64,000 nt of DNA from Patescibacteria group bacterium (lineage in GTDB: Bacteria; Patescibacteriota; Minisyncoccia; UBA6257; 2-01-FULL-56-20), in NCBI GenBank assembly GCA_024654525.1, contig JANLHI010000032.1, forward strand, positions 172-64,171. The letters run 5' to 3'. The translations under genes and the position numbers were made by a program. Below are positions 3,767-52,099 of this stretch, piece after piece. Numbering within the stretch: position 1 is the stretch's first letter; every line of letters starts with the position of its first letter. Under the pieces are notes generated by a model. It was not told the DNA's origin. It saw only the letters and a program-made list of their open reading frames with translations, and ran no database searches.

Positions 3767-4372
3767 CTACGATGCCTTAAGCCCTATAACCTTTGTACCC
3801 TCAATCACGTCCAAATCTTTCTTCTTAAACACAAACTTATCTTCAAGCGCGCCATCCTCCCCCATTTCCTTCAAAAATGCTTGTGGAGATTTTTCATACG
3901 CGGGCACCACCAACTTCGGCTCAAGTTGTCGTACCACTTTTTCAGCCGCTTCATCAGTGAGATAATTATTTCCCAACCGAAGAAACACCACATCTATTTC
4001 ATTTAATTTTTCGAGTAGCTCCGTATCTAATACCCGGCCAAGAGAACCGAGAAACGCAAACGTTATTCCCTCCCACCGCACAAGGTACGCGGTGTGTATC
4101 CGTTGATTTTTTCCGTCAACGCCAAGAGATACCCCGGTCACTTCCACTCCTTTGGACTCGTATTCTCCCGGAAACGTAATTTCCGTCTGCGCACCGAGCT
4201 CATCACCTTCTCCGGGAACCGGCGCATCCGTTTTAAGGATGATATCGCCCTTAAGCCGATTTGACGTCGGATCAACCAATACCGATATTTCACCGCTCTG
4301 TACGCGGAACGAACCTTCTCCGAAATAAGTGATAACCACGGGGATAGTATAGCGCCTTGCATCCCAAATCAC
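3767..4372 (-). CDS. Metallo-beta-lactamase-fold protein, COG2220-like. The HxHxDH metal motif appears degenerate.
   Basis: N-terminal ITYFGEGSFRVQSGEISVLVDP matches the MBL first beta-strand pattern. The expected HxHxDH position reads ILKTDAPVPGEGD. Confidence 0.5.
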   Translation of the reverse strand: MIWDARRYTIPVVITYFGEGSFRVQSGEISVLVDPTSNRLKGDIILKTDAPVPGEGDELGAQTEITFPGEYESKGVEVTGVSLGVDGKNQRIHTAYLVRWEGITFAFLGSLGRVLDTELLEKLNEIDVVFLRLGNNYLTDEAAEKVVRQLEPKLVVPAYEKSPQAFLKEMGEDGALEDKFVFKKKDLDVIEGTKVIGLKAS

Positions 4373-9682: not shown

Positions 9683-9886
9683 ATGGAAATATTCGCATTC
9701 ACGTTAGATGTTATCGGGAAGATTTTGATAGCATATACTGCACTTGCCGTTCATGGTCGCGTACGCACCGAGCAGAAAATTGATGCATCGGTATTCAAAG
9801 CGATGAGATGGGAAAAAGTAATCGGAATTTCCGGAATTATTTTTATAATTCTTGGATACCTTATTCATGTTTCGATAAGGTTTTAA
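9683..9886 (+). CDS. Possible small membrane protein.
   Basis: 67 aa with two hydrophobic segments. Lies immediately upstream of the zwf-gnd start. Weak call. Confidence 0.25.
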   Translation: MEIFAFTLDVIGKILIAYTALAVHGRVRTEQKIDASVFKAMRWEKVIGISGIIFIILGYLIHVSIRF

Positions 9887-9897: not shown

Positions 9898-12285
9898 ATG
9901 GAAACACCTACATCAAAAATCAACACTCCCACTATCTTTGTCATCTTCGGTGTTACCGGAGATCTTGCGGCAAAGAAAATCATCCCTTCCCTGTGGCATC
10001 TTTTCCAACAAAAACGATTACCGGATAAACTTTCCATTATAGGATTTTCCCGTAAAGGGATGGGCAGTGCAGAATTCCATGCTTTATTACGAGAGATACT
10101 CTTGAAGCGTGGCGGAGAAAATACAGACGAAAAAAATATTACTGATTTCTTCAAATTTTTCACATATCACGCAGGAACATTTGAGGATGAAAAGGCGTTT
10201 CATACACTCTCTCAACGCATTGCGGAAACGGAACAGGCGTGGGGAGTATGTACTAATAAACTTTTTTATCTCGCAGTGCCACCCTCATCCTTTTCCCCTA
10301 TTCTTAAAAACCTTGCGACCGCGAAACTCAATATACCTTGTGGGGGAGACCTTGGATGGAGTCGCGTGCTTGTTGAGAAACCTTTCGGGGTAAATTTGCA
10401 AACCGCATCCGAGCTTCAAGCACTTCTCGCATTGTATTTCAAGGAAGAACAAATTTACCGTATAGACCATTACTTCTTCAAAGAAATCGTGCAGGGAATA
10501 AAAAACTTCCGTTTTTCCAATAATCTCTTCGAGAATATATGGGACAACACCACCATTGAACGTATTGATATTCGACTACTCGAATCCGTTGGCGTGGAGG
10601 AGCGCGGGAACTTTTACGATTCGGTGGGAACCCTTCGCGATGTAGGACAAAACCATATTCTTGCCATGCTTGCTGCACTCACTATGGAATATCCGGAAAA
10701 TGCAACCGCTCATTCCATCCAAAAAAGCCGTGCGAATGTTTTAGAATTCCTTGCGCCATGGACAGATACCACACTCCAACAAAACACATATCGCGCTCGC
10801 TATCACGGATATACCGATATTCAAGGAGTCGCCCCAAATTCGGAAGTTGAAACTTACTTTGCACTCGCCACTCACCTCCTTCACTCCCGATGGAAGGGAA
10901 TTCCTATATTTATGGAGGCCGGGAAACGCATGTCTGAAGCACGAAAGGAGATGATACTTACCCTCAAGCATCCAGAGAAATGTTTTCTTTGCGAAACCAC
11001 AAAATCACATGCACCAAACCGTATCGTGTTTCGTCTCGAACCAAACGATGAAATTGTAATTCATTTTTGGACAAAAAAACCCGGTTTCGAACAAATTCTT
11101 GAAGAACGCACATTTTCATTTTTCCTTTATGAGAAAAGGGTGAAGATGCAATATGTCGAGGAATATGCAAATATTCTCCACGCTACCATGGAAGGGAACC
11201 AGGCCTTCTTTATCTCACCCGATGAAATTACGGCATCATGGAAATTTACAGATCCGATTATTGATAACTGGAAAAAAAATATTGTGCCACTTATGGAGTA
11301 CGAGCCCGACACCACTCCCGAAGCGGAAAATCTTCGTGAAAAAAATAACACTGCACACAAAGAAGCGAAGGGGGTGATAGGAATCATTGGACTGGGAAAA
11401 ATGGGAGCAAACCTTGCACGACGACTCCATGAGAAGCAATGGGATGTCGTGGGATTCAATAGAACTTCAGACTCCACTAAAAACCTTGTACGCGAAGGGA
11501 TCATAGGCGCTTACTCGTTGCAAGAGTTTGTAAACGCATTGCCAAGTCCCCGCACAATATGGCTTATGGCTCCCCATCAAGTAGTAGACACAATACTTGC
11601 CAACCTTACTCCTCTACTCCAAGAAAGCGATGTGATACTGGATGGCGGAAATTCTCCCTATAAGAGCTCAATCCAACGAGAGAAAAATCTTTCCCAAAAA
11701 AATATTTCCTTTCTTGATGTCGGCGTCTCGGGAGGTCCCGAAGGAGCAAGAAACGGCGCGTGTCTTATGATAGGAGGTGAAAGAGCACTCTATGAGAAAT
11801 ACGAACCGCTCTTCAGAGATTTATCAGTCGAGAAAGGATACGGTTATATGGGAAAATCCGGTGCGGGACATTTTGTAAAAATGGTCCATAACGGTATTGA
11901 ATACGGCATGATGCAGGCAATCGGTGAAGGATTTGAGGTGATGAAAAAATCCCCGTTTTCTCTTAACCTTCACTCCATCGCAGAACTCTATAATCACGGT
12001 TCAGTAATCACTTCCCGCCTCGTACAATGGCTTGCCAACGCATATGAAAAATTCAGCGATGAATTGGATACTGATGAGTGTTGCTCGGGAAAAGTCTCTC
12101 ATAGCGGCGAGGGGCAATGGACCGTGGATGCCGCAAAAGAATTTGGTGTGCCGGTTGCCATCATCGAAGGCGCGCTTGAATTCAGGAAACAATCACAAGA
12201 GAATCCTTCCTATACCGGAAAAGTCGTATCGGCATTGCGCCATGAGTTTGGCGGGCACGATACGAGTGACACCACATCACACTAG
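9898..12285 (+). CDS. zwf-gnd: Fusion of glucose-6-phosphate 1-dehydrogenase (N-terminal, about 480 aa) with a short-form 6-phosphogluconate dehydrogenase (C-terminal, about 300 aa, YqeC/GndL type).
   Basis: N-terminal part: IFGVTGDLAAKKIIPSLWHL (NADP site), EKPFG, YRIDHYFFKE, QNHILAMLAALTME. C-terminal part from about 11371: IGIIGLGKMGANLARRL Rossmann fold, DVGVSGGPEGARNGACLMIGG, GKSGAGHFVKMVHNGIEYGMMQAIGEG. Single uninterrupted frame. ATG at 9898 (METPTSK). Confidence 0.85.
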   Translation: METPTSKINTPTIFVIFGVTGDLAAKKIIPSLWHLFQQKRLPDKLSIIGFSRKGMGSAEFHALLREILLKRGGENTDEKNITDFFKFFTYHAGTFEDEKAFHTLSQRIAETEQAWGVCTNKLFYLAVPPSSFSPILKNLATAKLNIPCGGDLGWSRVLVEKPFGVNLQTASELQALLALYFKEEQIYRIDHYFFKEIVQGIKNFRFSNNLFENIWDNTTIERIDIRLLESVGVEERGNFYDSVGTLRDVGQNHILAMLAALTMEYPENATAHSIQKSRANVLEFLAPWTDTTLQQNTYRARYHGYTDIQGVAPNSEVETYFALATHLLHSRWKGIPIFMEAGKRMSEARKEMILTLKHPEKCFLCETTKSHAPNRIVFRLEPNDEIVIHFWTKKPGFEQILEERTFSFFLYEKRVKMQYVEEYANILHATMEGNQAFFISPDEITASWKFTDPIIDNWKKNIVPLMEYEPDTTPEAENLREKNNTAHKEAKGVIGIIGLGKMGANLARRLHEKQWDVVGFNRTSDSTKNLVREGIIGAYSLQEFVNALPSPRTIWLMAPHQVVDTILANLTPLLQESDVILDGGNSPYKSSIQREKNLSQKNISFLDVGVSGGPEGARNGACLMIGGERALYEKYEPLFRDLSVEKGYGYMGKSGAGHFVKMVHNGIEYGMMQAIGEGFEVMKKSPFSLNLHSIAELYNHGSVITSRLVQWLANAYEKFSDELDTDECCSGKVSHSGEGQWTVDAAKEFGVPVAIIEGALEFRKQSQENPSYTGKVVSALRHEFGGHDTSDTTSH

Positions 12286-12297: not shown

Positions 12298-13068
12298 ATG
12301 AAGCTTATTTCCCTCAACACATGGGGTGGCAAAGCATATGCGCCACTCATGCAGTTTATAAAAGAGCACGCCCCGACCACGGATATATTTTGCTTTCAGG
12401 AAATACTTTCCTCACCGGCACCGCAACGCGAGAGTCATGGAGCGCGCACGAATCTTTATGGTGAATTGGCGGAAGTCTTACCAAATTTCCAAAAATTCTT
12501 TACCGCGGAACAGAGCGGATACGACCTCGACGAACCCGTCGACTTCCCCATCTCCTATGGACAAGCTACGTTTATAAAAAACTCCGTTCACGTTCTCTCT
12601 ACCGAGGAAGTGTTCGTGTACCGCGACCGCAACAGTGCCCTCGATGTCAAAACATTTCCCGCAAGCATCCTCTGCACGCGAATCGCGCAAGAAGAGAAAA
12701 CCTATTCCATTATGAACATGCACGGCATAGCGCATCCGGAACACCACGACACCCCCGATAGACTGATGCAATCCGAGAAAATTCTGCGCTTTCTCGAAAA
12801 GGAAGAGGGAATCAAACTCCTCTGCGGAGACTTTAACCTCCGCCCCGAAACACTAAGCCTCGCATTGATTGAAAAAACCTTGCTTAATCTGAACAAAAAA
12901 TTCAACATACCACAAACCCGTAGCATTCTCTCGCCGTACTTTGGCAAGAAAAATTTCGACCCAACTGTGGACTATATCCTCGTCTCCCCCGAAGTAGAAA
13001 CCGAACAACTTGAAGTGCCCGATGTACAAATCTCCGATCATTTGCCTCTTATCCTCGAATTCAGTTAA
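12298..13068 (+). CDS. Endonuclease/exonuclease/phosphatase (EEP) family protein.
   Basis: 256 aa. MKLISLNTWGG..., CFQEI, LCGDFN and C-terminal SDHLPLILEF are typical EEP catalytic motifs. Confidence 0.75.
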   Translation: MKLISLNTWGGKAYAPLMQFIKEHAPTTDIFCFQEILSSPAPQRESHGARTNLYGELAEVLPNFQKFFTAEQSGYDLDEPVDFPISYGQATFIKNSVHVLSTEEVFVYRDRNSALDVKTFPASILCTRIAQEEKTYSIMNMHGIAHPEHHDTPDRLMQSEKILRFLEKEEGIKLLCGDFNLRPETLSLALIEKTLLNLNKKFNIPQTRSILSPYFGKKNFDPTVDYILVSPEVETEQLEVPDVQISDHLPLILEFS

Positions 13069-13141
13069 TATAGTGGCACACGCGCTTAGGGTCGACGTTG
13101 CAGTCGGCCTCCCAACTTGAAAACGTCGGGACTCAGCCAAT

Positions 13142-13408
13142 ATGAAAGGGTTTGTATATATCCTAGAATCTCTGCATGATAAAAGATTTTATATTGGAAG
13201 TACCTCTAATCTTTCGGAAAGAGTAAAACATCATCAAGGTGGGTTTACTCCAAGTACTCACAGAATGGGAGAAATCGCGCTTGTATTTTCCCAAGAATTC
13301 CCTACGCTTGAAGAAGCTCTTAAAATAGAGCAGAAACTTAAGCGTTTAAAAAGACGAGATTATATTGAGAAAATAATCCGAGAAGGAAAGATTAAAATGC
13401 GCGCTTAG
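13142..13408 (+). CDS. GIY-YIG nuclease-family small protein.
   Basis: 88 aa. GFVYILESLHDKRFYIGSTSNLSERVKHH matches GIY-YIG. Its stop (TAG 13406-13408) overlaps the 5' end of tRNA-Val. Confidence 0.7.
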   Translation: MKGFVYILESLHDKRFYIGSTSNLSERVKHHQGGFTPSTHRMGEIALVFSQEFPTLEEALKIEQKLKRLKRRDYIEKIIREGKIKMRA

Positions 13409-13470
13409 CTCAGTGGTAGAGCGACTCGTTTACACCGAGTAGGCCGGGGGTTCGATCCCCTCAGCGCGCA
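13399..13470 (+). tRNA. tRNA-Val (anticodon TAC), CCA not encoded.
   Basis: Acceptor gcgcgct/agcgcgc, D-arm tagctcagtggtagagc, anticodon stem actcg/cgagt with loop TTTACAC, T-arm ggggg-ttcgatc-ccctc. Confidence 0.85.
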
Positions 13471-13471
13471 C

Positions 13472-14155
13472 ATGGAACTTAAAGACAAGGTGATAGTAAT
13501 CACAGGAGGAAGTAGTGGACTTGGAGAAGTAATGGCGCAAGCCTTCATAAAAGAAGGCTCAAAAATGGTCATAAGTTCACGCTCGGAAAAAAAATTAAAA
13601 GAAGTCTCCCAAAAGATAAAGGTGGAATCTTTCGTTGCGGATGTAACGGACGAAAAACAAGTAAATAACCTGAGAGATTTTGCCGTTCAGAAGTTTGGGC
13701 GAATTGATATTTGGATCAATAACGCCGGAATCTGGATACCGTACAGACCCATAGAACAAATGGATTCCCGAAGAGTTCATGCGATGTTTGAAGTAAATGT
13801 GTTCGGAGCCATGTACGGCTCGAAGACCGCACTCATCCAAATGCGCGCACAGCACTCCGGAACAATAATGAACATTCTTTCTACGAGCGCCCTGGAGGGA
13901 CGGCTGAACTCTTCGGGGTATAGTGCAAGTAAATTTGCGGCAAACGGATTCACCAAATCACTGCGTCTTGAAGCGAAACCGGATGGTATATCGGTTATAG
14001 CGGTTTTTCCCGGCGGGATGAAAACTCATTTCTTCGACGAGAAAAAACCCGCGGACTTTGACGCGTTTATGGACCCGACTTTCGTGGCGGAAAAAATCAT
14101 AGAAAATCTCAAATACTCCGCCCCCGAAGAAGAACTCGTTATTAAGAGAAAGTAG
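13472..14155 (+). CDS. Short-chain dehydrogenase/reductase (SDR) family oxidoreductase.
   Basis: 227 aa. TGGSSGLG cofactor motif, NNAG, YSASKFA catalytic Tyr/Lys. Start ATG is 2 nt after tRNA-Val. Confidence 0.85.
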   Translation: MELKDKVIVITGGSSGLGEVMAQAFIKEGSKMVISSRSEKKLKEVSQKIKVESFVADVTDEKQVNNLRDFAVQKFGRIDIWINNAGIWIPYRPIEQMDSRRVHAMFEVNVFGAMYGSKTALIQMRAQHSGTIMNILSTSALEGRLNSSGYSASKFAANGFTKSLRLEAKPDGISVIAVFPGGMKTHFFDEKKPADFDAFMDPTFVAEKIIENLKYSAPEEELVIKRK

Positions 14156-14182
14156 TTCTCTTAATAAAAAGAAGTTGGAATC

Positions 14183-14743
14183 CTACTTTATTACGTTTAA
14201 AAAATTGTGGAATACCTCACTACCACACGTTTTCTCCACAAACATTTCAGGGTGAAACTGCACCCCATATATCGGACGTGTTTTGTGCTTGATAGCCTCT
14301 ACTCCGTCTTTAGAACGCGCCAATACCATCAAATCCTCGGCTGGTTCTTTTACAACCCAGCGATGGCTTTCAAAAACCTGGAAGTTCTGGATATTCAAAA
14401 ATAATTCATCCGGCACGACTACTTGAATATCAAGAATACCACGCTCTTTATTTTGCATAAGTTCAAGTTTCGCTCCAAACGCACGCGCAACCACCTCAAA
14501 ACCAAAACAAATTCCAAAAATAGGCTTTTTAGAATCTATAACAAGGCTTATTTCCTTTTGAAGCCGTTCTTCATTCCCACTCACAGGAAAACCATGCCCA
14601 CCAGAAAGAACGACGGCATCAAAATCATCGGCGTCAATAGAATCTATTTCGGAATATTTAATCGCCCGAGAAAGGCTACCAATCAAAAGATTTTCCAGTT
14701 GAGGCAAATAACTTGTACCATTGTCCACTATTAAAACTTTCAT
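14183..14743 (-). CDS. Class I glutamine amidotransferase-like protein, GuaA N-terminal-domain-like.
   Basis: 186 aa. GICFGFE nucleophile-elbow Cys and HPE catalytic His, as expected for GATase1. Confidence 0.7.
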   Translation of the reverse strand: MKVLIVDNGTSYLPQLENLLIGSLSRAIKYSEIDSIDADDFDAVVLSGGHGFPVSGNEERLQKEISLVIDSKKPIFGICFGFEVVARAFGAKLELMQNKERGILDIQVVVPDELFLNIQNFQVFESHRWVVKEPAEDLMVLARSKDGVEAIKHKTRPIYGVQFHPEMFVEKTCGSEVFHNFLNVIK

Positions 14744-36799: not shown

Positions 36800-36953
36800 A
36801 ACTTTTACGAGAGTAAAACCTTACCACTGGGGATAAACTCGCGTGGTCTGTATGCCATACACCTCCTATAATGGAGATGGTGGATTCCATCTTTGTAAAA
36901 GGTGGCGTGTAGAGGCGTATCCACCAGTATTCCACACTTTTTCCACACTGTTC

Positions 36954-39809
36954 ATGATTCCCGATATAAAAAAACTTATTGCCGGATTTCTTGCGTGCTC
37001 CCTCCTTGCAACGTTATTTATTCTCATCGCCCCATCGTTCCTTTCACAAACACCCGCGTCTGTATCGCAAGAAAATAACTCCACGAATATCCAAAATGCT
37101 TTTACACCAAAGTCCGACACCATCTCTTCCGTTACGTCTGGCAATTCGGAAGAATCCGCCCAATCCCGGACACTGACTCCTTCTACCAACCTTACACAGC
37201 GCCTTGGAAATCTCCTCGCACGAGAAATAATAAACACTAACGAAGAAGCCGGAGTTCTTTCCGGTCCCCCAGAAGGTCTTGCGGTACCGAAACAGGCGGC
37301 ACTTGAAGCAACTATTAAAGATAGTTTGTCCGATGCATCATCTTTTCCATTTTCAGTGCCGGATTTCACCAGATCCATATCCGACAGCGCTCTTTCTATA
37401 ATTGAGAATCCATCCGCGGAAGATTATCAGCACTATACCGATGCTACTCAAGGAGTACTTGAAAAAACCATTTGGAGTAAAAACTTTCAAAACCTTCTCG
37501 AGGAAGAATCTCCAAGCATAGAAAGCGCATATGCGGCAACTACGGTATATGGAACCGCGTCCCGCGACCTGGCACAAATCTCCGTTCCCGCACCTCTTGT
37601 CTCGTTTCACAAAAAAATAACGACAGTAGTAATCAACCGAAAAAAACTTACTGATCTTGCACTGGATAATTTCGAGGATCCGCTCAAATCCATTGCGATT
37701 CTCAAACAACTCGACGGCCAAGTGGAGTCTATTATAGAGCAGGATCTTACCAATCTTCATAATGAGGCAGAGCGTATACGTACGTTATCACTCCACGCGC
37801 CCGTACAATCAGGCACACGCAATCTGGCGGACTATATTCTCGGCATTGATCGCGCGTTTGCACAAGGGTACGTCCCTGTTGATGCAACCGGACCGGTTTC
37901 AAAGGCATTTCAAACTCATGAGGCAAAAGCGACTACCACCACATGGCTCCGTCGCCTTTGGGAATGGGGCCAAAAAATATTCCTACAACAACTAAAAAAC
38001 CAACTCATCTCTCTTCTCGAACAGCAAATTGTAAATTGGATCAATGGGGGAGGGTCTCCACAATTTGTAACAGACTGGCAGGGATTTATTTCCACAGCGT
38101 TTAACAATGCCGCTGGTGCGGCGATTCAAGAAATTCTTCCGGGGCTTTGCCAACCCTCCTCCCCACTCCTCCGAATTTCATTGGTGCTCCCCAGCGTAAA
38201 TATACCCGTGTACAGCGGATGTACGCTCAATCAAGTGATAAGCAACGTAAAAAATTTCTATTCGAGTTTTCGCTCGGGAGGATGGGTTCAGTATGGTGTT
38301 ACGTTTGAACCCACCGGTAATTATTTCGGTGCTATTATCGAAGGACATGATCGTGTTACTCGTACCGCTCTTGCCGCCGCGGATGCCGCAAAAAACAAAG
38401 CACTTGCGGGAAGCGGATTCTTAAGTACGGAAGTATGTCCTTCAACTAATAAATCACCGGGGGCGGAAGGATGCCCTGGAGGTGAGCATCCGCTTATCCG
38501 CACACCGGGTTCGGTTCTCGGTGCCACAGTGACAAAAGCACTCGGATCAAACTTTGATCTTATTGTGAATGCAAACGATATAGGCGGACTTGTACAAACC
38601 GTCACAAATGCCGCGCTTACAAGAATCGTCACCTTGGGGCTAAGTGCAGTAAGCGGGAAACCGAGCGGATTAGGCCTTTCAAACGTTGCGTATACCAATA
38701 ATTCATCTCTCTCACAAGGACTCCAATCTGCTGAAAGTGATGCAAAAACAAAAGCGACTGTAGACCAAACTAACCAAGAATCCACTTTCGACGGACTGCA
38801 AACTTCCACTTCTCCACAAGCAGACCCGTTTGCGCAAGGAGTGGATACGGAAGAAGAAATTTCAACATCAAACAATCCCGTAAGTCTTGCAGAAAACAAG
38901 CCAGTGAGACAATCAAGCACATGGGTAAGTCGTGGCTCCGCGTCCGCAGCGGAATATGCCGTCGACGGAAGAAAAAGCAATAGTTTATATGGTTCTGCGG
39001 TAACCGACAGAGGAGGTAACAGCTGGTTAGTGGTAGATCTTCAAGAAATAGCTGTTATTGATCGCGTGGATATTCAAGAATTTCCCGGCCGACTGTTTTC
39101 GGGATGTATTATTATCTCCGCGCAAAATCCGGGATCATCCCCTTTGTCGTGCAACGGAAGCAACGGTGTGACGATTCCATTCGCGCCCACCGGCGCGGAA
39201 ACACTGGTAAGTATACCGGTGGGAAAAATCTCGGGTCGTTATGTATGGGTACAACAACAATCTTCCAAGGATAATATGATCATTTCGGAACTTGGAGTGT
39301 TTGGCGCCGGCACGGGACAAGGAAATAATTCAAGCGCCACTGCTATTTCGATGATATCTCCCGGAGGAGATGTATTATCGTGGAATCGTGGGACGACGTC
39401 TTATCCTCGACTCGACATCGTTTCATCAAAACCTGCATCGGGATTATCCCTCTCTTTTGAAATCAAGAAAGCGCCCGCATCAGGAACGGGAGTGACAAGA
39501 AAAATAACGGGAAATTACGCGGATGCTCCACTCGGAGATTTACTTGCGTCACTTAATGTCACTCTTCGTAATGCAGCAGGAACATCGTTGGTCTCCGACA
39601 CACTTAACTTTTCTATTAATCAAGGTGCAACCGTATTCTCTCCTTCTCAATCATTTTCATTACCGGCAAATACCATAAATTCACTTACCTACGATGCGAC
39701 AGTATATTCGTACGCCGGAATTAATGATTCATACCTTCTCCTCACCACCCTGCACGATGATGCCGGTGTCGTAATAAGCACCCATGCTTTCACTATCAAT
39801 GTTCATTAA
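36954..39809 (+). CDS. Large secreted surface protein with an F5/8 type C (discoidin)-like domain.
   Basis: About 951 aa from the MIPDIKKLIAGFLACSLLATLFILIAPSF signal/anchor. The listed ORF starts at 36843. Ser/Thr/Gly-rich. Discoidin-like block WVSRGSASAAEYAVDGRKSNSLYGSAVTDRGGNSWLVVDLQEIAVIDRVDI. First gene of the co-directional cluster. Confidence 0.6.
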   Translation: MIPDIKKLIAGFLACSLLATLFILIAPSFLSQTPASVSQENNSTNIQNAFTPKSDTISSVTSGNSEESAQSRTLTPSTNLTQRLGNLLAREIINTNEEAGVLSGPPEGLAVPKQAALEATIKDSLSDASSFPFSVPDFTRSISDSALSIIENPSAEDYQHYTDATQGVLEKTIWSKNFQNLLEEESPSIESAYAATTVYGTASRDLAQISVPAPLVSFHKKITTVVINRKKLTDLALDNFEDPLKSIAILKQLDGQVESIIEQDLTNLHNEAERIRTLSLHAPVQSGTRNLADYILGIDRAFAQGYVPVDATGPVSKAFQTHEAKATTTTWLRRLWEWGQKIFLQQLKNQLISLLEQQIVNWINGGGSPQFVTDWQGFISTAFNNAAGAAIQEILPGLCQPSSPLLRISLVLPSVNIPVYSGCTLNQVISNVKNFYSSFRSGGWVQYGVTFEPTGNYFGAIIEGHDRVTRTALAAADAAKNKALAGSGFLSTEVCPSTNKSPGAEGCPGGEHPLIRTPGSVLGATVTKALGSNFDLIVNANDIGGLVQTVTNAALTRIVTLGLSAVSGKPSGLGLSNVAYTNNSSLSQGLQSAESDAKTKATVDQTNQESTFDGLQTSTSPQADPFAQGVDTEEEISTSNNPVSLAENKPVRQSSTWVSRGSASAAEYAVDGRKSNSLYGSAVTDRGGNSWLVVDLQEIAVIDRVDIQEFPGRLFSGCIIISAQNPGSSPLSCNGSNGVTIPFAPTGAETLVSIPVGKISGRYVWVQQQSSKDNMIISELGVFGAGTGQGNNSSATAISMISPGGDVLSWNRGTTSYPRLDIVSSKPASGLSLSFEIKKAPASGTGVTRKITGNYADAPLGDLLASLNVTLRNAAGTSLVSDTLNFSINQGATVFSPSQSFSLPANTINSLTYDATVYSYAGINDSYLLLTTLHDDAGVVISTHAFTINVH

Positions 39810-39834
39810 CGCCTTCAGAAGGGGCGTGGGGAAA

Positions 39835-42387
39835 ATGCTCAAAACAATTTTTAAGGTTGCTGTCTTTGCAATCTCGATTGGCACACTTACCGTACCCTCG
39901 CCCGCACACGCAGGATGGCTCGACTTTGGTGCAAGTGTGATATTTGGCGCAACGGGAGGAGCTATTGCGTGGATTACTTATATCATCTCGTACATTATTA
40001 CGGCGATTGTAGGACTTTTCACCGCGCTGATAATCTATAGCATCGGTGTCGTGCTACAGCTCAATACCAATATCGTAAACGCGGTGGCAGTACAAGAAGG
40101 ATTCAAGGTAACGCTCTCCATCGCAAATCTTGGATTTGTACTCGGCATTATTATTATCGCGATTGCCACTATCATCAGATACGAACACTACGGAATAAAA
40201 CACCTTCTCGTGAAGCTTATTACCGCGGCGCTTTTGGTAAATTTCAGTTTGGTTATCGGCGGAAGCATTTTAAACTTTGCCGATCAATTGTCGAACGTAT
40301 TTCTCACCGCATTCCCCGGCGGAGGAGGGGATGAAAATGCCCTTTCAAAGTTTCATAATTTTTCAAAATCTTTTGGTGGGGCATTTTCTCCTCAACGCGC
40401 ACTCTTAAATCCAACAATTAAAGGAGCAAACAGTATGACATCCGATGACCTTCAAAGATTTCAAGGAGCGGGCTCAGTCGGGCAAAGCCTGGGAGAAGTA
40501 TTTACTCCTCTTTTGAACCTTATTTTCACCATCGTCATACTTATTTCTATCTTTATCACTGTATGCGTGTTCTTCTTTATGCTCCTCATACGATATATCT
40601 ATCTCGGCATCCTTTTTATCCTCATGCCACTCGTATGGCTTATGTGGGTATTTCCGCTCACCGAACACCTTTGGAAACAGTGGTGGGGAAAATTCCTTAA
40701 GTGGACATTTTTTGCACCCATCTCTCTATTCTTCCTATGGCTTGTGATTATCACTTCGGAAACCATGAACAGAGGAGCGGGCGACAACCCCCTGCAAGGA
40801 TTGCGAGGGCTTGGATATACCGCATCGGATTCATCTTTTGTCGCGGGACTCTCAAGTTTTGTTGGAAGTCTCGCTAATCAAGTTGTTGGTACTTTTCTTC
40901 AAATGGCGGTTCTCGTAGGACTTTCGATAGGGGGTCTTATCGCCGCGGAAAAGTTTTCAATCATGGGCTCACATGCGGCGATGGGCACAATGAAAGGATT
41001 AGGAAAGTGGGCGCAAGGATATGTCGGAAAGCGCGCAAAACAAACGGGAGGGAAAATTGCCCAAAGAATGGGCCTTGGAAATGCTGCGACTGCCCTGCAA
41101 CAAAAAGGACTTTCTTTGCCCACTAACATTGCCTCGGGTCGCGGAAGAGTATTGCGCACACTTGCTAAACCATTAAATGGTCTTGCGACTGCATTTAATT
41201 ACAGTGGAAAACTTGGAGGTCGCGCTCTTCAAGCGGGTGTTGCCGGAGGACGAAGCGGTTTGATAAGTGGTGGGGAAGCGGATGTGAAGGATGCAACAAA
41301 GGGACTCACCACCGACCAGCAGGCAAACCTTATCAGCACCATGACCGCGCCCCAACGGATTGCGCTTACTGCGAAAGCAATGAAAGAAGGGTGGCTTGAA
41401 AAAATTGACAGCAAATATTACGGCCCTGCCCAAAAAGAAATGTATAAGAGCTATGGACAGGAAAAAACGTATAACGATGTATACAAAGCAACTGCCGGAG
41501 CAGGAGAAAAGAAACATTATTTTGATGAAATTGAGAAGGGGAATAAGGATACCATCGAGCATACACGTGCAGAAGCGGAGAAGTTGAAGGAGGAAGAGAT
41601 ACGCAAGAAATCAGAAGACGCAAAGACGAAAGAAGTGGATCAGGCGTTGCGCAATACAATAGCGCCGAGCTCTCCATACGCTCAAGCTGCAGCGAAAAGA
41701 AAGTGGATAGACGAAGAAGTTAAGAAGCGACTTGCTCACACAGGACCCAACAACGAGATACGAGAGGCAGGAAATCGGGCAGTTAAAGATTCAGAGGAAG
41801 AGATAAAAAAAGCAGGAGAGAATGCAGTTGAAAGCAAGAAGAGAGGGGAAAATGTTATGGTTGATGAAATAGATTCAGAAACTGGAAAACTTACGGGTCG
41901 CAAAGTAAATGCACAAGAAAAACTAAAAGAAATTGATAGTAAGCTTGTTCCAGACTTAAAGAAAGGGGATAAAGCGCAGTATAAGGAAATATTTGGCGAT
42001 AAACCCGCATTCGGATTAAGTGCGGAGAGTGTAAAAATGATGGGGAGTGTATTTGCAGAAAAAATTGCATACTCAAACCAACAACTTGTACCGAATATTA
42101 TCTCCAAGATGAACGCGAAACAACTCCAAGGATTCTCAACGATGTACAAGAAAATCCTAAAGGATGGCAAAGATTCAACAGGTGGGGACTTGAAGAATTA
42201 TATAGAAAAAGGAGAGAAAAATTTTGAGAAAATTCTTGCGCATAACATGACAAGTCATGCGCACGAAGAGGAGGATCACGGAGGAGCACATGAAGAAGAA
42301 AATCGCGGAGGTGGCGCTTCTCACTCCCCCGCGCCGGAACCCGCTCCCGCCCCTAGTGGAGGAGGAGGTGACGCATCTCACCATTAA
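39835..42387 (+). CDS. VirB6/TrbL-like polytopic membrane protein with a roughly 450-aa charged C-terminal extension.
   Basis: Signal-like N-terminus (AVFAISIGTLTVPSPAHA). About six TM helices over the first 400 aa. Long Lys/Glu-rich tail ending HEEEDHGGAHEEENRGGGASHSPAPEPAPAPSGGGGDASHH. Strong RBS aaggggcgtgggga before ATG 39835. The listed ORF begins at 39784. Confidence 0.5.
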   Translation: MLKTIFKVAVFAISIGTLTVPSPAHAGWLDFGASVIFGATGGAIAWITYIISYIITAIVGLFTALIIYSIGVVLQLNTNIVNAVAVQEGFKVTLSIANLGFVLGIIIIAIATIIRYEHYGIKHLLVKLITAALLVNFSLVIGGSILNFADQLSNVFLTAFPGGGGDENALSKFHNFSKSFGGAFSPQRALLNPTIKGANSMTSDDLQRFQGAGSVGQSLGEVFTPLLNLIFTIVILISIFITVCVFFFMLLIRYIYLGILFILMPLVWLMWVFPLTEHLWKQWWGKFLKWTFFAPISLFFLWLVIITSETMNRGAGDNPLQGLRGLGYTASDSSFVAGLSSFVGSLANQVVGTFLQMAVLVGLSIGGLIAAEKFSIMGSHAAMGTMKGLGKWAQGYVGKRAKQTGGKIAQRMGLGNAATALQQKGLSLPTNIASGRGRVLRTLAKPLNGLATAFNYSGKLGGRALQAGVAGGRSGLISGGEADVKDATKGLTTDQQANLISTMTAPQRIALTAKAMKEGWLEKIDSKYYGPAQKEMYKSYGQEKTYNDVYKATAGAGEKKHYFDEIEKGNKDTIEHTRAEAEKLKEEEIRKKSEDAKTKEVDQALRNTIAPSSPYAQAAAKRKWIDEEVKKRLAHTGPNNEIREAGNRAVKDSEEEIKKAGENAVESKKRGENVMVDEIDSETGKLTGRKVNAQEKLKEIDSKLVPDLKKGDKAQYKEIFGDKPAFGLSAESVKMMGSVFAEKIAYSNQQLVPNIISKMNAKQLQGFSTMYKKILKDGKDSTGGDLKNYIEKGEKNFEKILAHNMTSHAHEEEDHGGAHEEENRGGGASHSPAPEPAPAPSGGGGDASHH

Positions 42388-42389
42388 CC

Positions 42390-43826
42390 ATGATGAACGC
42401 AACCATAATACCAGAACAAAAAATCTTTGAGCGTTGGGATTTACTTGCCCCGGCGCTCCGCGATGCGTTGGTGTCCGAAGAAAATTCCGATATTGTCTGG
42501 AAAACATGCACCGATGAGCATCTTTCTGAAGAGAAAATACACGAAGTCGCCCGTATTGTCTCGTGGGTGATGTTGGGATTTCTCCACCCAGAGGACATTG
42601 CACGAGAAGTGCAATTCTCGACGGGGATTCATCCGGAAGTAGCGCGAGCGATTGCATCTCCGCTCATCAAAAAAATATTCGAGCCCATGCGGGATGATCT
42701 TGAAAATATTTATGCTCCCACACCCTTAAAAGAAGGTGTTTCCGCCTCAAGCGTAATCACCGATACCGAAAGCACTCCTTTCCCGATTATTATTGATAAT
42801 GCAGAAAAAACAGAAACGGTTGATAAAACACTTGCCAACCTCGGTAAGGGAATATCAGATGAGCCATTCTTCAAAGAACCTCCCGCTCGAATGGAAAGCG
42901 CTTCCTCTGCACCGCTTCCGGAAAATCCCTTCTTCGACAATACCACCGTCGGTGAAAAACCCGTTCCTTTCCCTCCTGCATCTTCTGATGTTCCCCCTGC
43001 CTTTCATGAAGAAACATCCTCGGAGACGATGCCATTCATGATTCACGAAGAACCTTCCGCTTCTTCAATTCCTCACATCGGAGATTTTTCCTTGAATATC
43101 AAACCTGAAGAATTTGGGCCTTCACGCGAAGAATTTCAAAATATTCCAAAAGCAGACATAGAAATAGGAGGAGGAGACAACCCCGCAGTTCACCCGCAAG
43201 AAGGATTTTATTCCCCCGACGACAACCAGCCGGAGAGAATTGTGCATTACAGTGATTTTCACACACCGATTCCCGCAGAAACCGAAAAAAATACCATTAT
43301 TACACCTTTTTCATCCCTTACCAAACCCACTCCGTCATTTAAAGAAAAAAATCCAGAAGATGCTTTTCAACCGCCACCTTCTCCATCCTCAGAAACAATA
43401 ATGAATATCGGAAATTTTGGAGGAGATATTTCATCCGCTCACACGTCGATTTCTCCCGAGCCTGCGCCGCCTGTTCCCACCCCTAAAAAGAAAGGGGTAT
43501 TCGGTTCTTTTTTCGGATTGCCAAAAAGTAAAAAAAATATCGTAGTAACAGACACTGCACCAATCCCCGATATTCCTCCGTCACCTCTTTCTTTCAAAAA
43601 AATCTCTCCCGACATTCCTCCAAAACCAAAAAAAGTACTTGTTTTTGATTCTGCATCTTTTATGCAAAATGCTCCGAGAAAAGAAAATTTCTCCAGCGTC
43701 CAACCAGCCCCACCACCTGTTCCGAAAATCATCCCATCTCCCGCACCTCAAGATAAAACTTTAAGTTCTTCCGTGTTGGATATATCCTCTCTCTCCGGAG
43801 ATCTCAATAAAGAATCAACTTCTTAA
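42390..43826 (+). CDS. Hypothetical protein with a globular N-terminal domain and a long Pro/Ser-rich low-complexity C-terminus.
   Basis: 478 aa. Repeated PPSP, PPKPKK and PAPPPVP tracts. Start is 3 nt after the upstream stop. Confidence 0.5.
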   Translation: MMNATIIPEQKIFERWDLLAPALRDALVSEENSDIVWKTCTDEHLSEEKIHEVARIVSWVMLGFLHPEDIAREVQFSTGIHPEVARAIASPLIKKIFEPMRDDLENIYAPTPLKEGVSASSVITDTESTPFPIIIDNAEKTETVDKTLANLGKGISDEPFFKEPPARMESASSAPLPENPFFDNTTVGEKPVPFPPASSDVPPAFHEETSSETMPFMIHEEPSASSIPHIGDFSLNIKPEEFGPSREEFQNIPKADIEIGGGDNPAVHPQEGFYSPDDNQPERIVHYSDFHTPIPAETEKNTIITPFSSLTKPTPSFKEKNPEDAFQPPPSPSSETIMNIGNFGGDISSAHTSISPEPAPPVPTPKKKGVFGSFFGLPKSKKNIVVTDTAPIPDIPPSPLSFKKISPDIPPKPKKVLVFDSASFMQNAPRKENFSSVQPAPPPVPKIIPSPAPQDKTLSSSVLDISSLSGDLNKESTS

Positions 43827-43850
43827 TACTAATATTTTCATCTTTATTTC

Positions 43851-44351
43851 ATGCAATTCCAAGTCCCTCAATTTATTGAAACGGAAGACAAGATTGTCGG
43901 TCCTTTTACGTTGAAACAATTTATTGTGGTCGGCGTGTCTGTAGGAATATCTCTCGTACTCTACTTCATCGTCGTTCCTTGGCTGTGGATTATTCTTTCT
44001 ATTCCAATAGTGGGCGCAGGAGCTTCGCTTGCATTTATACGTGTTGGGGGAAGATCTCTCCCTGTAGTAGCCCAAGCCGCGATCCGCTATTTCTGGAAAC
44101 CTCAAACGTATGTATGGCAACCACAACAGCCTCACGCTCCTACAACTCCCTCTCCCCAAGAACACCCTTCTCATGAATCATCACTTGAAGAAATTCTTTC
44201 TGGACTCGCATTGCGTACCACATGGCAAAAGCTTCAAACCGGAAAAAAGATATCGCCCGGTACATTGCTTGGACATACGCAAGACCGATACACAATATTT
44301 CGCAAACGCACCGGAGAACGCAACGCAGCAAGAAGGATAGACTACCGATAG
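43851..44351 (+). CDS. Small two-TM membrane protein, candidate VirB3/ConD-like component.
   Basis: 166 aa. TM hairpin FIVVGVSVGISLVLYFIVVPWLWIILSIPIVGAGASLAFI. Positioned directly upstream of the VirB4-like ATPase, as in Gram-positive conjugation operons. Confidence 0.45.
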   Translation: MQFQVPQFIETEDKIVGPFTLKQFIVVGVSVGISLVLYFIVVPWLWIILSIPIVGAGASLAFIRVGGRSLPVVAQAAIRYFWKPQTYVWQPQQPHAPTTPSPQEHPSHESSLEEILSGLALRTTWQKLQTGKKISPGTLLGHTQDRYTIFRKRTGERNAARRIDYR

Positions 44352-44447
44352 TCTTTTTACCACAATGCCCCGAGGTAGCAGTTTCGTAATAAGGTACAAT
44401 TAATATGCATGGATTCGAGATAAGAACTCCGTACATTCTCTATTTTT

Positions 44448-45137
44448 ATGCCTAAAGAATTTGCAAACGCACAAACTCTTGTCGCAGTAAAAGATATACG
44501 CGACAACGTCCTTATCTTGAACGATGGCGGACTTCGCCAAATTCTCATGGTAAACGGTATTAATTTTGCGCTCCGATCCGAAGTAGAGCAAAACACTATT
44601 ACCGCCGGATATCAAAATTTCCTCAATACTCTCGACTTTCCTCTTCAAATCCTTATTCATTCGCGCAAAATTAATATTGACGAATATCTTATAAAGCTTG
44701 CCTCCCGCGAACAAGCAGAGCTTTCTCCTTTACTTCGCAGTCAAAATTCCGAGTACAGAGAATTCATCAGGGGGTTTGTGGAAAAAAATGCGATTATGGA
44801 AAAAAGTTTTTTTGTGGTGATTCCATGGTTTCCTTCTGCTATACCCACCAAGCAGACTATTATGCGCTTTATTCCGTTTTTAAAACACAGCAAGGAGGAA
44901 AACGACGCAGCTGCAACCGACAAAGAGGATTCTTTTGAGGAATCGCTGGAACAGCTCAAAGATCGCGTCGAGCAAATATCAGAAGGACTTTCTTCAATCG
45001 GGCTTGATTCGGTAATACTCGATAATAAGGCGCTCGCTGAACTTCTCTATAATTTCTACAATCCTGAATCCATTGAAAAAGAGAATATCAATCTTCCTGA
45101 TACTCAAGATGAAATGTCGCATAAAAATACACCATAG
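44448..45137 (+). CDS. N-terminal domain of the VirB4/TrbE/ConE-family ATPase, ending in a stop at an A5 run.
   Basis: 229 aa. LVAVKDIRDNVLILNDGGLRQILMVNGINFALRSEVEQNTITAGYQNFLNTLDFPLQILIHSRKINIDEYL resembles the VirB4/PrgJ N-terminal pattern. Stop TAG at 45135-45137. Confidence 0.6.
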   Translation: MPKEFANAQTLVAVKDIRDNVLILNDGGLRQILMVNGINFALRSEVEQNTITAGYQNFLNTLDFPLQILIHSRKINIDEYLIKLASREQAELSPLLRSQNSEYREFIRGFVEKNAIMEKSFFVVIPWFPSAIPTKQTIMRFIPFLKHSKEENDAAATDKEDSFEESLEQLKDRVEQISEGLSSIGLDSVILDNKALAELLYNFYNPESIEKENINLPDTQDEMSHKNTP

Positions 45138-45139
45138 CC

Positions 45140-46876
45140 ATGGAAGAATCCTCTAAACAAGAGAGTCCTTTAGGAAACATTGCTAAAGTGATTGCACCCG
45201 CAGGTGTTGAAGTAACGCCGAATCACGTAAAGATCGGGTCTAAGCTCGTTAAGACGTTTTTTATTCTTTCTTATCCACGCTATCTCGCTACGGGGTGGTT
45301 TGAACCACTGGTAAATCTCCCTAATCTTCTTGATATTTCCATCTTTGTAACACCGATGGATACCGGAAACGCACTGCGCAACCTCAGAAGAAAAGCCGCA
45401 CAGCTTGAATCTCAGATTGCCGATACGGAAGAGAAAGGCTTAGTGCGCGATCCTCTTCTCGAAACCGCGCTTCGCGATGTGGAATCGTTACGCGACACTC
45501 TCCAACAATCAGAGGAACGCCTTTTCGATACTGCGGTATATATCGCCGTATACGCCGACACAGAAGACGAACTTGCTCGCCTTGAGGGTCAAGTAACCTC
45601 GCTTATGGAATCGAAGCTTATCTATATCAAACCAGCGCTCTTCGAACAACTTGAAGGACTCATGTCTATATTTCCCTTTAACAGCGATAAATTGTCCATC
45701 ACCACATCCATGAATTCCGGCCCTATTTCTTCATTCTTTCCATTCGTATCAGAGGACCTTACTTCGAACGATGGAATTATGTATGGCATCAACCGCCACA
45801 ATAACAGTCTAGTTATATTCGACCGGTTTTCTCTAGAGAATGCAAACCAAGTCATTTTCGCCAAATCAGGATCGGGAAAATCCTATGCCACAAAACTCGA
45901 AATTGTTCGATCTCTTATGATTGGAACCGATGTTATTGTTATCGATCCCGAAAATGAGTACGAGCGCCTTGCGCATGCGCTTGGAGGAAGCTTCTTTAAC
46001 ATATCCCTTTCTTCGGAAGAACATGTGAACCCCTTCGATATTCCCATCATACCCGAGGGAGAATCTCCGTCCGACATTCTTCGCTCTCATATCGTCAACC
46101 TTTCCAGTCTTGTAAAACTCATGCTTGGAAAAATAACTCCGGAAGAAGACTCTCTCCTCGACCGCGCGATTACGGAAACATATGCATCGCGGGAAATTGT
46201 AGTGGGAGAGGATTTTTCGGGAAAAGAGCCTCCTCTTCTTGAAGATTTAGAAACCATCCTCCGTAATCTTGAAGGAGGAAGGGCGATGGCCGAACGTCTG
46301 TATAAATATACGAAAGGGTCTTTTGCCGGTTTTGTGAATCAGCACACCAACATTGATATCAATAATCGTCTTATCGTTTTTTCCATTCGAGACCTTGAAG
46401 AAGAGCTTCGTCCAATTGCTATGTTCGTCGTATTAAATTTTATCTGGAACCTTATCCGTGCAAAGTTAAAACGCAGAATTCTTATGATTGATGAAGCGTG
46501 GATTATGATGAAAAATGACGACTCCGCTACATTTCTTTTCGGTCTTGTAAAACGAGCTCGGAAATATTATTTGGGCGTTTCCACTATCACGCAAGACGTG
46601 GAGGATTTTCTTCGCTCTCCGTATGGAAGACCCATCATTACCAACTCATCAGTACAACTCTTGTTAAAACAGGCGCCTGCGACAATCGACATCGTTGCAA
46701 AAGCATTTGATCTCACCGAGGCGGAGAAGGGGATGCTTTTGGGTGCCGAAGTCGGTACCGGACTCTTTTTTGCAGGTAAAAAACATGTAGCGTTACAAAT
46801 TATTGCGTCTTACTTCGAAGATCAGATGATTACTACAAATCCGGAACAGCTTCTTGAGGAAGATAAGGCGGAATAG
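45140..46876 (+). CDS. VirB4/TrbE/TraC-family type IV secretion ATPase (ATPase domain).
   Basis: 578 aa. Walker A AKSGSGKSYATK, Walker B RILMIDEAW (the DEAW variant typical of VirB4/TraC). In a different frame from the preceding ORF. Confidence 0.8.
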   Translation: MEESSKQESPLGNIAKVIAPAGVEVTPNHVKIGSKLVKTFFILSYPRYLATGWFEPLVNLPNLLDISIFVTPMDTGNALRNLRRKAAQLESQIADTEEKGLVRDPLLETALRDVESLRDTLQQSEERLFDTAVYIAVYADTEDELARLEGQVTSLMESKLIYIKPALFEQLEGLMSIFPFNSDKLSITTSMNSGPISSFFPFVSEDLTSNDGIMYGINRHNNSLVIFDRFSLENANQVIFAKSGSGKSYATKLEIVRSLMIGTDVIVIDPENEYERLAHALGGSFFNISLSSEEHVNPFDIPIIPEGESPSDILRSHIVNLSSLVKLMLGKITPEEDSLLDRAITETYASREIVVGEDFSGKEPPLLEDLETILRNLEGGRAMAERLYKYTKGSFAGFVNQHTNIDINNRLIVFSIRDLEEELRPIAMFVVLNFIWNLIRAKLKRRILMIDEAWIMMKNDDSATFLFGLVKRARKYYLGVSTITQDVEDFLRSPYGRPIITNSSVQLLLKQAPATIDIVAKAFDLTEAEKGMLLGAEVGTGLFFAGKKHVALQIIASYFEDQMITTNPEQLLEEDKAE

Positions 46877-47601
46877 TGATTATGGAAGAACAAGGAGGAG
46901 AAAAAAAAGTAAGTCTCGTTGAGACGATATATTTACTCATTATTGTTGGCATTAACTCTGTAGTAAAAATAGTTGCCGACCTTTCTTTCGGAATTCCTAT
47001 AATAGGACAAATTTTTTTTATATTTGCGGAGTTTTTCACCGTTATAATCTGGGCATTAATTCTTTTTTTCTTTGTAATGAAGCTGGGATCGTTTGGCGCG
47101 GTGGGAATTGCACAAGTCATCGGCGGTATTCTTGATATGCTTGGAATTCCAATAGGACTCCTCATTTCCACTACTCTCGGTATCTACCTTGCAAACCACC
47201 CGAAAGTCACTGCAGTGGCGCAACTCGCAACAGCAAAAGGAGCAGTGTCTGCGGAAGGAAGGGTTGCTAAAGAAGCTACGGCAGAGGGTACTGCAGGGGA
47301 AAAGACAGCGAAAGGTACTACGGCTCGCATCTCACAATCGGGTACTGCAGAAATACAAACTCCAGAAGCGGGTACTGTACCTAATACGCCCCTTGGAGAG
47401 GAAAATGTAATTCCTCAAAAGCCCTCAATTTCAGAAGAATCATTTGGGATTGAACCAGAACCATTAGAGAAGGTGCGAAGACTTATGGAAAACCCTCTAT
47501 CCCCAGAAGAAAACAGAGATGAGGAATCACAACCCTCATCACCTCCTCCTCGCATGGTTGAAGATATACACAAAAGAGAGCTCCCGGGCGATGGGGTATA
47601 A
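46876..47601 (+). CDS. Membrane protein with an N-terminal TM bundle and a disordered acidic/Pro-rich C-terminus.
   Basis: 241 aa. GTG at 46876 overlaps the VirB4 stop; an ATG alternative is at 46882. Three to four TM helices followed by AEGTAGEKTAKGTTA low-complexity sequence. Confidence 0.45.
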   Translation: MIMEEQGGEKKVSLVETIYLLIIVGINSVVKIVADLSFGIPIIGQIFFIFAEFFTVIIWALILFFFVMKLGSFGAVGIAQVIGGILDMLGIPIGLLISTTLGIYLANHPKVTAVAQLATAKGAVSAEGRVAKEATAEGTAGEKTAKGTTARISQSGTAEIQTPEAGTVPNTPLGEENVIPQKPSISEESFGIEPEPLEKVRRLMENPLSPEENRDEESQPSSPPPRMVEDIHKRELPGDGV

Positions 47602-47614
47602 TAAAAACAAGTAG

Positions 47615-49395: not shown

Positions 49396-49401
49396 CACAC
49401 C

Positions 49402-51747: not shown

Positions 51748-51748
51748 T

Positions 51749-52099
51749 TTAGCGAGATACTTTCTGTTGTTCAGTGATTATATATTGAACAATAGCATGA
51801 TGCGCTTTTTCAATCTCCCCGCGAAGATTATGGTGAGAAAGAGAAACTACTGCGCGAGTAAGAATAAATACTACGTCGTAAGCCTCTTTAAATTTCCACG
51901 TACGCACCTCTCCTAGAATTTTCCTTTTTAACCCATGGCGGCGAACTGACAATGGCTCAACGGAGTTGCTAATTACAACCCCAAACATACTCTCTTTTTG
52001 TTTATTAGGGCCACCTTTTACACTAAGGTAACGACTGATATAAAGAAGCCGTGCGCGCAACGCCCTAGGGACCAGTGCGCGCATCTTCCTTGGAAGCAT
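51749..52099 (-). CDS. rnpA: Ribonuclease P protein component.
   Basis: 116 aa, basic. FGVVISNSV...RRHGLKRKILGEVR and DVVFILTRAVV...LRGEIEKA align with RnpA conserved blocks. Immediately downstream of rpmH. Confidence 0.72.
   Translation of the reverse strand: MLPRKMRALVPRALRARLLYISRYLSVKGGPNKQKESMFGVVISNSVEPLSVRRHGLKRKILGEVRTWKFKEAYDVVFILTRAVVSLSHHNLRGEIEKAHHAIVQYIITEQQKVSR

Follow-up and report, generated by a model that had tools for sequence, protein, structure and literature searches.

The stretch of DNA that we analysed, hereafter the window, comprises 64,000 nucleotides of a Patescibacteria group bacterium (assembly GCA_024654525.1, contig JANLHI010000032.1, positions 172 to 64,171). 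On its forward strand it carries one gene (9898..12285, +) in which zwf and gnd, encoding glucose-6-phosphate dehydrogenase (G6PD) and 6-phosphogluconate dehydrogenase (6PGDH), are fused in frame. The product is very probably a bifunctional enzyme, for which we infer the activities, the cofactor, the oligomeric state and the selective benefit. Its N-terminal module (~475 aa) would oxidise glucose-6-phosphate to 6-phosphogluconolactone, and its C-terminal module (~300 aa) would convert 6-phosphogluconate to ribulose-5-phosphate by oxidative decarboxylation; one polypeptide would thus hold both NADPH-yielding steps (1 and 3) of the oxidative pentose phosphate branch, its modules tethered by a flexible, non-conserved linker of ~17 residues. 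Hydrolysis of the lactone between the two reactions would be spontaneous or carried out by an unlinked lactonase. The benefit would most likely lie in making the two dehydrogenases strictly 1:1 and assembling them together, rather than in a physical tunnel.

The fusion gene is one uninterrupted reading frame of 795 codons followed by a TAG stop at 12283-12285, as seen in both the sequence and the open reading frame (ORF) listing. The most upstream in-frame ATG, at which the mechanically called ORF begins, lies at 9808, and a start there would overlap the preceding ORF (9683-9886). Translation from the ATG at 9898 gives a protein of 795 aa whose entire length matches P0001 (NCBI MCR4328729.1) at 100% identity; P0001 sits on a 193,261-bp contig and is annotated at NCBI as glucose-6-phosphate dehydrogenase only. 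Because this product matches MCR4328729.1 from end to end, the protein has 795 residues plus a stop; the preliminary description was right about the single uninterrupted ORF, while its length of 796 aa was one too many. No stop codon or frame change occurs at the zwf/gnd junction, where the sequence from 11320 to 11370 is uninterrupted, and Pfam recovered all four of the domains G6PD_N, G6PD_C, NAD_binding_2 and 6PGD with E-values of 1e-24 to 4e-71.

The N-terminal half had been described as a complete G6PD with the motifs GxxGDLA, EKPFG and RIDHY, and domains, family model and motifs all agree with this. The dinucleotide-binding domain (aa 15-199, 9940..10494, +) matched PF00479 (G6PD_N) with 184 bits, the C-terminal beta+alpha domain (aa 204-478, 10507..11331, +) matched PF02781 (G6PD_C) with 240 bits, and residues 1-491 scored 442.7 bits against the zwf equivalog TIGR00871, whose cut-off is 400.6. 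The first domain holds GVTGDLA (aa 18-24), R52, EKPFG (160-164) and RIDHY (188-192, within RIDHYFFKE), and the second holds RDVGQNH253. We take R52 to be the arginine position for the 2'-phosphate of NADP, and D190 and H253 to be the catalytic pair. Conservation was counted in an alignment of 119 full-length fused homologues. G18, G21, D22, L23, E160, K161, P162, the run I189-D190-H191-Y192 and H253 are each kept in 119/119 and R52 in 117/119; the motifs that mark G6PDs as a family (GxxGDLA, EKPxG, RIDHY(L)xKE and the His-Asp pair) are present in our protein and kept in 111-119 of the 119. One detail required correction, namely the W..DP..W region, which had been put at about residue 480: it lies at approximately residues 448-458, and the Pfam G6PD_C match stops at 478. 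When the predicted model was searched with Foldseek, solved G6PDs matched at template modelling (TM) scores of 0.84-0.89 (target-normalised). These matches were stand-alone G6PDs only, whose TM did not exceed 0.55 when normalised to the query, and the search found no solved structure spanning both halves. As one part of the bifunctional-enzyme explanation, the N-terminal module is predicted with good confidence to be a glucose-6-phosphate-oxidising G6PD.

The C-terminal half showed the features of a complete short-form 6PGDH, also as described before from GLGKMG, GVSGG and GHxVKMVHNGIEY, and motifs, Pfam and NCBIfam cut-offs all support this. Its Rossmann domain (aa 494-643, 11377..11826, +) matched PF03446 (NAD_binding_2) with 134.8 bits and contains GLGKMG (498-503) and GVSGG (609-613). 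The helical domain (aa 657-787, 11866..12258, +), matched by PF00393 (6PGD) at 657-768 with 87 bits, begins with GHFVKMVHNGIEYG (657-670) and carries the catalytic K661 and E668 and the C-terminal substrate-binding motif R781-x2-F784-G785-x-H787. Against NF007161 this half scored 365.9 bits (cut-off 271) and against TIGR00872 (gnd_rel) 361.7 bits (cut-off 297.2), and its best match in the PDB was the short 6PGDH 4e21 (E = 2e-68). Among the homologues, GLGKMG is kept in 118-119/119, S611, K661, H664, N665, E668, R781, F784 and G785 in all 119, and H787 in 118. The module has 304 aa and belongs to the short class; the second copy of the helical domain that dimeric 6PGDHs of 470 aa carry is missing from it, and it covers only the first ~290 positions of the long-form 6PGDH models, scoring below their cut-offs. 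In short-chain tetrameric 6PGDHs, the RX2FGXH motif binds 6-phosphogluconate from the neighbouring subunit (bioRxiv 10.64898/2026.01.21.700892). Since this motif works across subunits, the 6PGDH module would have to oligomerise to function, and we predict it, with the same good confidence in the explanation as a whole, to be a short-chain, tetramer-type 6PGDH. An Asn32-Arg33-Thr34 turn sets NADP+ specificity (PMC8900737), and in our protein the turn N521-R522-T523 (11458-11466, +, within the Rossmann domain) corresponds to it. Position 521 is N in 107/119 homologues and Asp in ~10/119, and it is followed by R or K in 96/119. From their motifs, both dehydrogenase modules are predicted to use NADP+.

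The two halves are joined by an inter-enzyme linker (aa 475-491, EAENLREKNNTAHKEAK, 11320..11370, +) of low identity and low predicted local distance difference test (pLDDT) score; it includes the stretch REKNNTAHKEAK at aa 480-491, and a run of seven A lies within it at 11339-11345. Mean identity to our protein was 65% over the G6PD half and 64% over the 6PGDH half of the fused homologues, compared with 13% over residues 475-491; constraint is alike on the two halves and lacking on the connector. Among the homologues, Y468 and G495 are mostly 23-31 residues apart. The AlphaFold model, with a mean pLDDT of 88.6, is confident in both modules and falls below 50 at residues 482-488; it depicts a pair of folded enzymes connected by a flexible tether, and no fixed interface between them is predicted with confidence.

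The fused architecture is widely distributed. All of the 120 best protein matches carried all four domains; 119 of them were 774-876 aa long at 57-100% identity and one was a 661-aa fragment. They were drawn from NCBI, JGI, ENA and Logan assemblies, and the named carriers among them were Levy-, Nomura-, Magasanik-, Uhr-, Roizman- and Wolfebacteria and Paceibacterota. When representatives at 50% identity were searched exhaustively, ~12 full-length fused clusters were found, the lowest at 36% identity to our protein, with named members from Woesebacteria/Microgenomates, Minisyncoccia and Patescibacteria. With each GTDB species represented by a single genome, true fusions accounted for 14 of the best 80 loci; these were defined by an explicit count as having both halves in the same frame with zero stop codons between them. 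Three of these loci came from contigs whose labels read Actinomycetes, Coriobacteriia or Slackia and whose GC is 64-68%; there the GC of the gene equals that of its flanks. A search from one of these high-GC fusions gave at least 120 further fused clusters (779-816 aa), named Coriobacteriia, Anaerosomatales, Coriobacteriales or Actinomycetota, on contigs of up to 2.04, 2.52 and 2.67 Mb, bringing the total to at least 240 distinct fused protein clusters, itself a lower bound. Two sets of labels were distrusted: the "uncultured Gammaproteobacteria" of L007, L014, L016 and L035 and the "Actinomycetes CSMAG_2519" of L017 (GC 0.46) have sequences that group with genes of the candidate phyla radiation (CPR). 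The fusion had been called uncommon and set in a minimal metabolism. It is uncommon across life and in the literature (PMC10909971), but within Patescibacteria it is common; and because Coriobacteriia/Anaerosomatales have this architecture fixed as well, on contigs 2.0-2.7 Mb long, it is not tied to a minimal genome.

Relatives in which the two genes are separate point to how the fusion formed. Separate zwf and gnd in the same order were found, among others, in Wildermuth-, Yonath-, Azam- and Giovannonibacteria and in several Saccharibacteria and Parcubacteria. The unfused CPR-type gnd starts at its own ATG (M-K-K-E-I-G-x-I-G-L-G-K-M-G), whose offset from the end of the zwf stop is -4 nt in two loci (an ATGA overlap) and ranges from +1 to +26 nt in most of the rest; the overall spacing is -4 to about +100 nt, with one locus at +623. 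In L006 (Parcubacteria) and L013 (Moraniibacteriota), zwf and gnd share a frame and are separated by one or two stops, and both loci are one or two point mutations short of a fusion. Bacillales and Mycobacterium have zwf then gnd with wider gaps, and the order gnd then zwf occurs in Chlorobi, Nitrosomonas/Proteobacteria, Chloroflexi and others. The fusion arose by read-through between the tightly packed zwf and gnd of the zwf-gnd(-pgl) cluster that typifies Patescibacteria.

Bootstrapped neighbour-joining trees (100 replicates) were built separately for the Zwf and Gnd halves. CPR-type and Coriobacteriia sequences were separated from the rest in 100/100 Zwf replicates; the same split was found in 99/100 Gnd replicates only when the Nitrospirota gnd of L032 and L037 were included, and in 0/100 without them. 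The Coriobacteriia fusions were monophyletic (Zwf 100, Gnd 97), the CPR sequences alone were not (0 and 0), and neither were all fused sequences together (0 and 0). Both halves belong to a single CPR-type zwf-gnd lineage. Fusion and fission appear to have been repeated within this lineage, and one transfer seems to have carried the already fused gene into Anaerosomatales (Coriobacteriia). As a separate observation, two Nitrospirota metagenome-assembled genomes (MAGs) have a gnd inside the CPR-type Gnd clade (L032 3560-4597 and L037 9809-10900), whereas their zwf groups with other Nitrospirota-like sequences, which suggests that in these cases gnd was transferred alone, separately.

The preliminary description had proposed substrate channelling or strict co-expression as the meaning of the fusion. 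A built channel is disfavoured because the linker is unconserved and predicted to be disordered and the model shows a flexible tether, and a hydrolysis step separates the two reactions. Of strict co-expression, the version with fixed stoichiometry stays plausible: because the lactone needs hydrolysis between the sites, 1:1 synthesis and co-assembly are better supported than a channel. Several points weigh against our explanation. The predicted TM score of the model (0.61) is uninformative on the relative orientation of the two modules, and the assembly of a G6PD dimer and a 6PGDH tetramer on one chain is putative. The cofactor call comes from motifs only, and the best-matching equivalog TIGR00872 carries an NAD+-dependent name. 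All carriers found are MAGs, and the trees are distance-based only, which leaves the number of fusion and fission events uncertain. The hydrolysis step is unaccounted for by any recognised lactonase type in the window, and a preprint argues that spontaneous hydrolysis does not substitute for Pgl in E. coli.

Among the other explanations, the one that survives best is that the main role is catabolic rather than redox supply, the protein serving as the entry to a pentose-phosphate shunt around the phosphofructokinase missing from many CPR. Phosphofructokinase is rare in CPR and a non-oxidative pentose phosphate shunt is likely there (Jaffe et al. 2020), and the ~10/119 homologues with Asp at the N521 position bear an NAD-type signature. 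The same study, however, found the oxidative branch patchy and phylogenetically shallow across CPR; the N-R-T turn of our protein is of the NADP type, Coriobacteriia with genomes of normal size carry the fusion too, and genes for thiol reductases, thioredoxin or glutaredoxin neighbour several fused loci. In one Levybacteria genome, a pyridine-nucleotide disulfide reductase precedes the fusion by 5 nt, inside a thioredoxin/glutaredoxin/DsbD cluster, and in L003, the closest species representative, two pyridine-nucleotide disulfide reductases flank it. In Anaerosomatales, a DsbH-type thioredoxin gene lies directly downstream at one locus and a ferredoxin-thioredoxin reductase subunit near another. 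Such neighbours (Pyr_redox_2, Trx, Grx, DsbD, DsbH, FeThRed_B) were seen at only 4/19 fused loci and give a hint of a thiol-redox physiological context. We consider a mainly catabolic role unlikely, and it is not exclusive of the bifunctional-enzyme explanation.

The lactone raises another alternative, in which the fusion copes without a lactonase: the fused lineages would have lost pgl, and the proximity of the active sites or an intrinsic activity would handle the hand-over from lactone to 6-phosphogluconate. As stated before, no 6-phosphogluconolactonase (6PGL) lies between the halves, and the protein has no match to PF01182, the domain carried on the same chain in GluPho-type proteins. Among the window proteins there is no Glucosamine_iso, YbhE-type Lactonase or SGL family member, a 6PGL-domain query and a CPR-Pgl profile found no match in the window, and no other pentose phosphate pathway gene lies within it. 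The profile was built from seven CPR Pgl-like ORFs, of which the four run through Pfam were each Glucosamine_iso (44-104 bits). With it, pgl was found adjoining zwf/gnd in seven CPR loci; six of these have separate zwf and gnd, and in the seventh, L072, the contig has gnd but no zwf. In loci flanked on each side by at least 1 kb, with up to 10 kb per side covered, pgl was adjacent in 6/13 unfused and 0/14 fused CPR-type loci (Fisher p = 0.006, a value that ignores shared ancestry). This contrast and the window without a lactonase favour the alternative. On the other hand, since at most 10 kb of flank was covered, these genomes may carry pgl at another site; the linker is predicted to be disordered and is not conserved, and hydrolysis is chemically needed between the two sites. 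We regard coping without a lactonase as quite improbable.

Two further proteins touch on this question. A 201-aa hydrolase of the metallo-beta-lactamase fold (3767-4372, -; Pfam Lactamase_B_3, 59 bits) is the only hydrolase of the window with a fold shared by some lactonases, and nothing ties this protein to 6-phosphogluconolactone. In the Coriobacteriia locus L084, a 553-aa beta-propeller protein (12657-14318, -), encoded on the other strand just past the downstream end of the fusion, may be a candidate YbhE-type lactonase, with faint Pfam hints only (Lactonase PF10282, SGL, YNCE).

The G6PD half also contains a set of cysteines, C118 (10249-10251, +), C148 (10339-10341, +) and the motif C362-x-x-C365 (10981..10992, +), which are invariant or at least 90% kept in 53 fused homologues. 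The four are common to CPR-type Zwf, fused or unfused and including the Coriobacteriia clade, and are absent in Zwf of Bacillales, Proteobacteria, Chloroflexi, Nitrospirota and Mycobacterium. In the AlphaFold model, residues 361-370 have a lower pLDDT of ~70. A structural zinc site or a redox switch is conceivable for these cysteines. The boldest combination would be a redox-controlled two-step NADPH generator, in which the oxidative branch runs without a dedicated lactonase, pgl having been lost, the tether handling the hand-over and the four cysteines possibly regulating it; we hold this as a speculative and very improbable case.

It is hardly credible that the C-terminal half is a different beta-hydroxyacid dehydrogenase, or that one half is catalytically dead. 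The NAD_binding_2 fold is common to 3-hydroxyisobutyrate dehydrogenase (HIBADH) and tartronate semialdehyde reductase, and weak matches to both were seen, but these reached 57 bits for HIBADH and 59-61 bits for the reductase models against cut-offs of 290-400, whereas the 6PGDH models gave 362-366 bits, over their cut-offs; conservation extends to the residues K661/H664/N665/E668, which are specific to 6PGDH, and to the RX2FGXH tail, and is equal in both halves. The earlier assignment of this half to 6PGDH, rather than to another member of the superfamily, stands. The fusion is not an assembly artefact: a merger of neighbouring genes through loss of a stop or a shift of frame, such as one in the A7 homopolymer of the linker, might be suspected from near relatives with separate abutting genes or a single in-frame stop, but the same architecture with differing linkers and similar spacing in at least 240 clusters from four sources, together with 14 species-representative genomes having no stop between the halves, already rules this out as a general explanation, and for our gene it is almost certainly wrong.

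Downstream of the fusion, an endonuclease/exonuclease/phosphatase (EEP)-family gene (12298-13068, +) begins 13 nt past the stop and is probably co-transcribed with it, because the gap holds no terminator-like site; promoter and terminator scans around the fusion gene gave nothing above chance. This gene is not beside the fusion at any other locus compared. The search for a conserved operon partner gave a negative answer, the window neighbours DUF302, DoxX, EEP-family and SDR not being conserved beside other fusions, and no pentose phosphate pathway gene is adjacent to the fusion at any fused locus examined. Elsewhere in the window, a GIY-YIG domain ORF (13142-13408) overlaps the start of a tRNA gene (13399-13470) by 10 nt (13142-13470, +). 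A same-strand gene run at 36843-50628 (+) resembles a type IV secretion or conjugation-like cluster: it includes a PrgI-family gene (43851-44351), a TraG/VirB4-like P-loop ATPase (45140-46876) and a type IV secretion system pilin-domain gene (48328-49395), along with large ORFs of 867, 478 and 408 aa that Pfam did not match and one of 988 aa with a sub-threshold F5_F8_type_C match only. The replication origin is probably just upstream of dnaA (region ~51700-55114), because dnaA (52505-53863) and dnaN (54005-55114) coincide with the minimum of the cumulative GC skew (-2.76 at 52001-54000, rising after).

Known bifunctional G6PDs pair the enzyme with the lactonase, as the preliminary description had stated, in Plasmodium (GluPho), Giardia and Trichomonas (PMC10819308). 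Like our protein, they have G6PD on one chain with another oxidative pentose phosphate enzyme, but in these eukaryotic proteins G6PD is paired with the lactonase (step 2, PF01182), whereas ours has the step-3 dehydrogenase and is bacterial. Their proposed roles are NADPH supply and defence against oxidative stress (PMC10819308). Natural fusions have been stated to join only enzymes 1 and 2 of the oxidative pathway (PMC10909971, 2024), and we found no description of a natural G6PD-6PGDH fusion in the literature searched; a description of cultured Anaerosomatales reported an "incomplete pentose phosphate pathway" and did not mention a fusion. Our protein search also returned other combinations: P0260 is a classic bacterial-type G6PD+6PGL protein, P0191 (735 aa) joins phosphoglucose isomerase to a short 6PGDH, P0232 (606 aa) has an NAD_binding_2 domain ahead of G6PD, and P0138 (868 aa) has G6PD followed by ~420 aa with no Pfam match. 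The mammalian endoplasmic reticulum enzyme H6PD is another G6PD-lactonase pairing. The C-terminal half shares the ~300-aa class and fold family of the stand-alone short 6PGDHs (Gluconobacter oxydans Go6PGDH, M. tuberculosis Gnd2, Geobacter 4e21), with the same catalytic Lys/Glu and the same neighbour-subunit RX2FGXH tail; it differs in that its N terminus is tethered to a 475-aa G6PD, and 4e21 has Asp where the fusion has the N of N-R-T (NADP type). The adjacent zwf-gnd(-pgl) clusters have the same gene lineages and order, and the fusion halves nest there with 99-100% bootstrap, but in these clusters the genes are separate, gnd has its own ATG, and pgl is often alongside. The engineered yeast fusions G6PD-6PGL and G6PD-tHMG1 likewise form a single-chain NADPH module with a flexible linker; they are synthetic, and 6PGL was picked since the authors found no natural 6PGDH fusion (PMC10909971).

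Both enzymes are textbook and no new chemistry is implied; the novelty lies in recognising the architecture and its distribution, the sequences being already public and partly labelled by JGI. Because NCBI names the fusions only "glucose-6-phosphate dehydrogenase", reconstructions of CPR pathways can overlook the 6PGDH step and score the oxidative branch as incomplete. The fusion is a natural, evolution-tested template for single-chain modules yielding 2 NADPH per glucose-6-phosphate, with use in cofactor regeneration. It also provides a clean case of repeated fusion and fission of packed neighbour genes and of inter-phylum transfer of the fused form. Finally, the contrast in lactonase adjacency gives a testable handle on the dispensability of Pgl, and the fusion would gain in interest if this contrast holds genome-wide.

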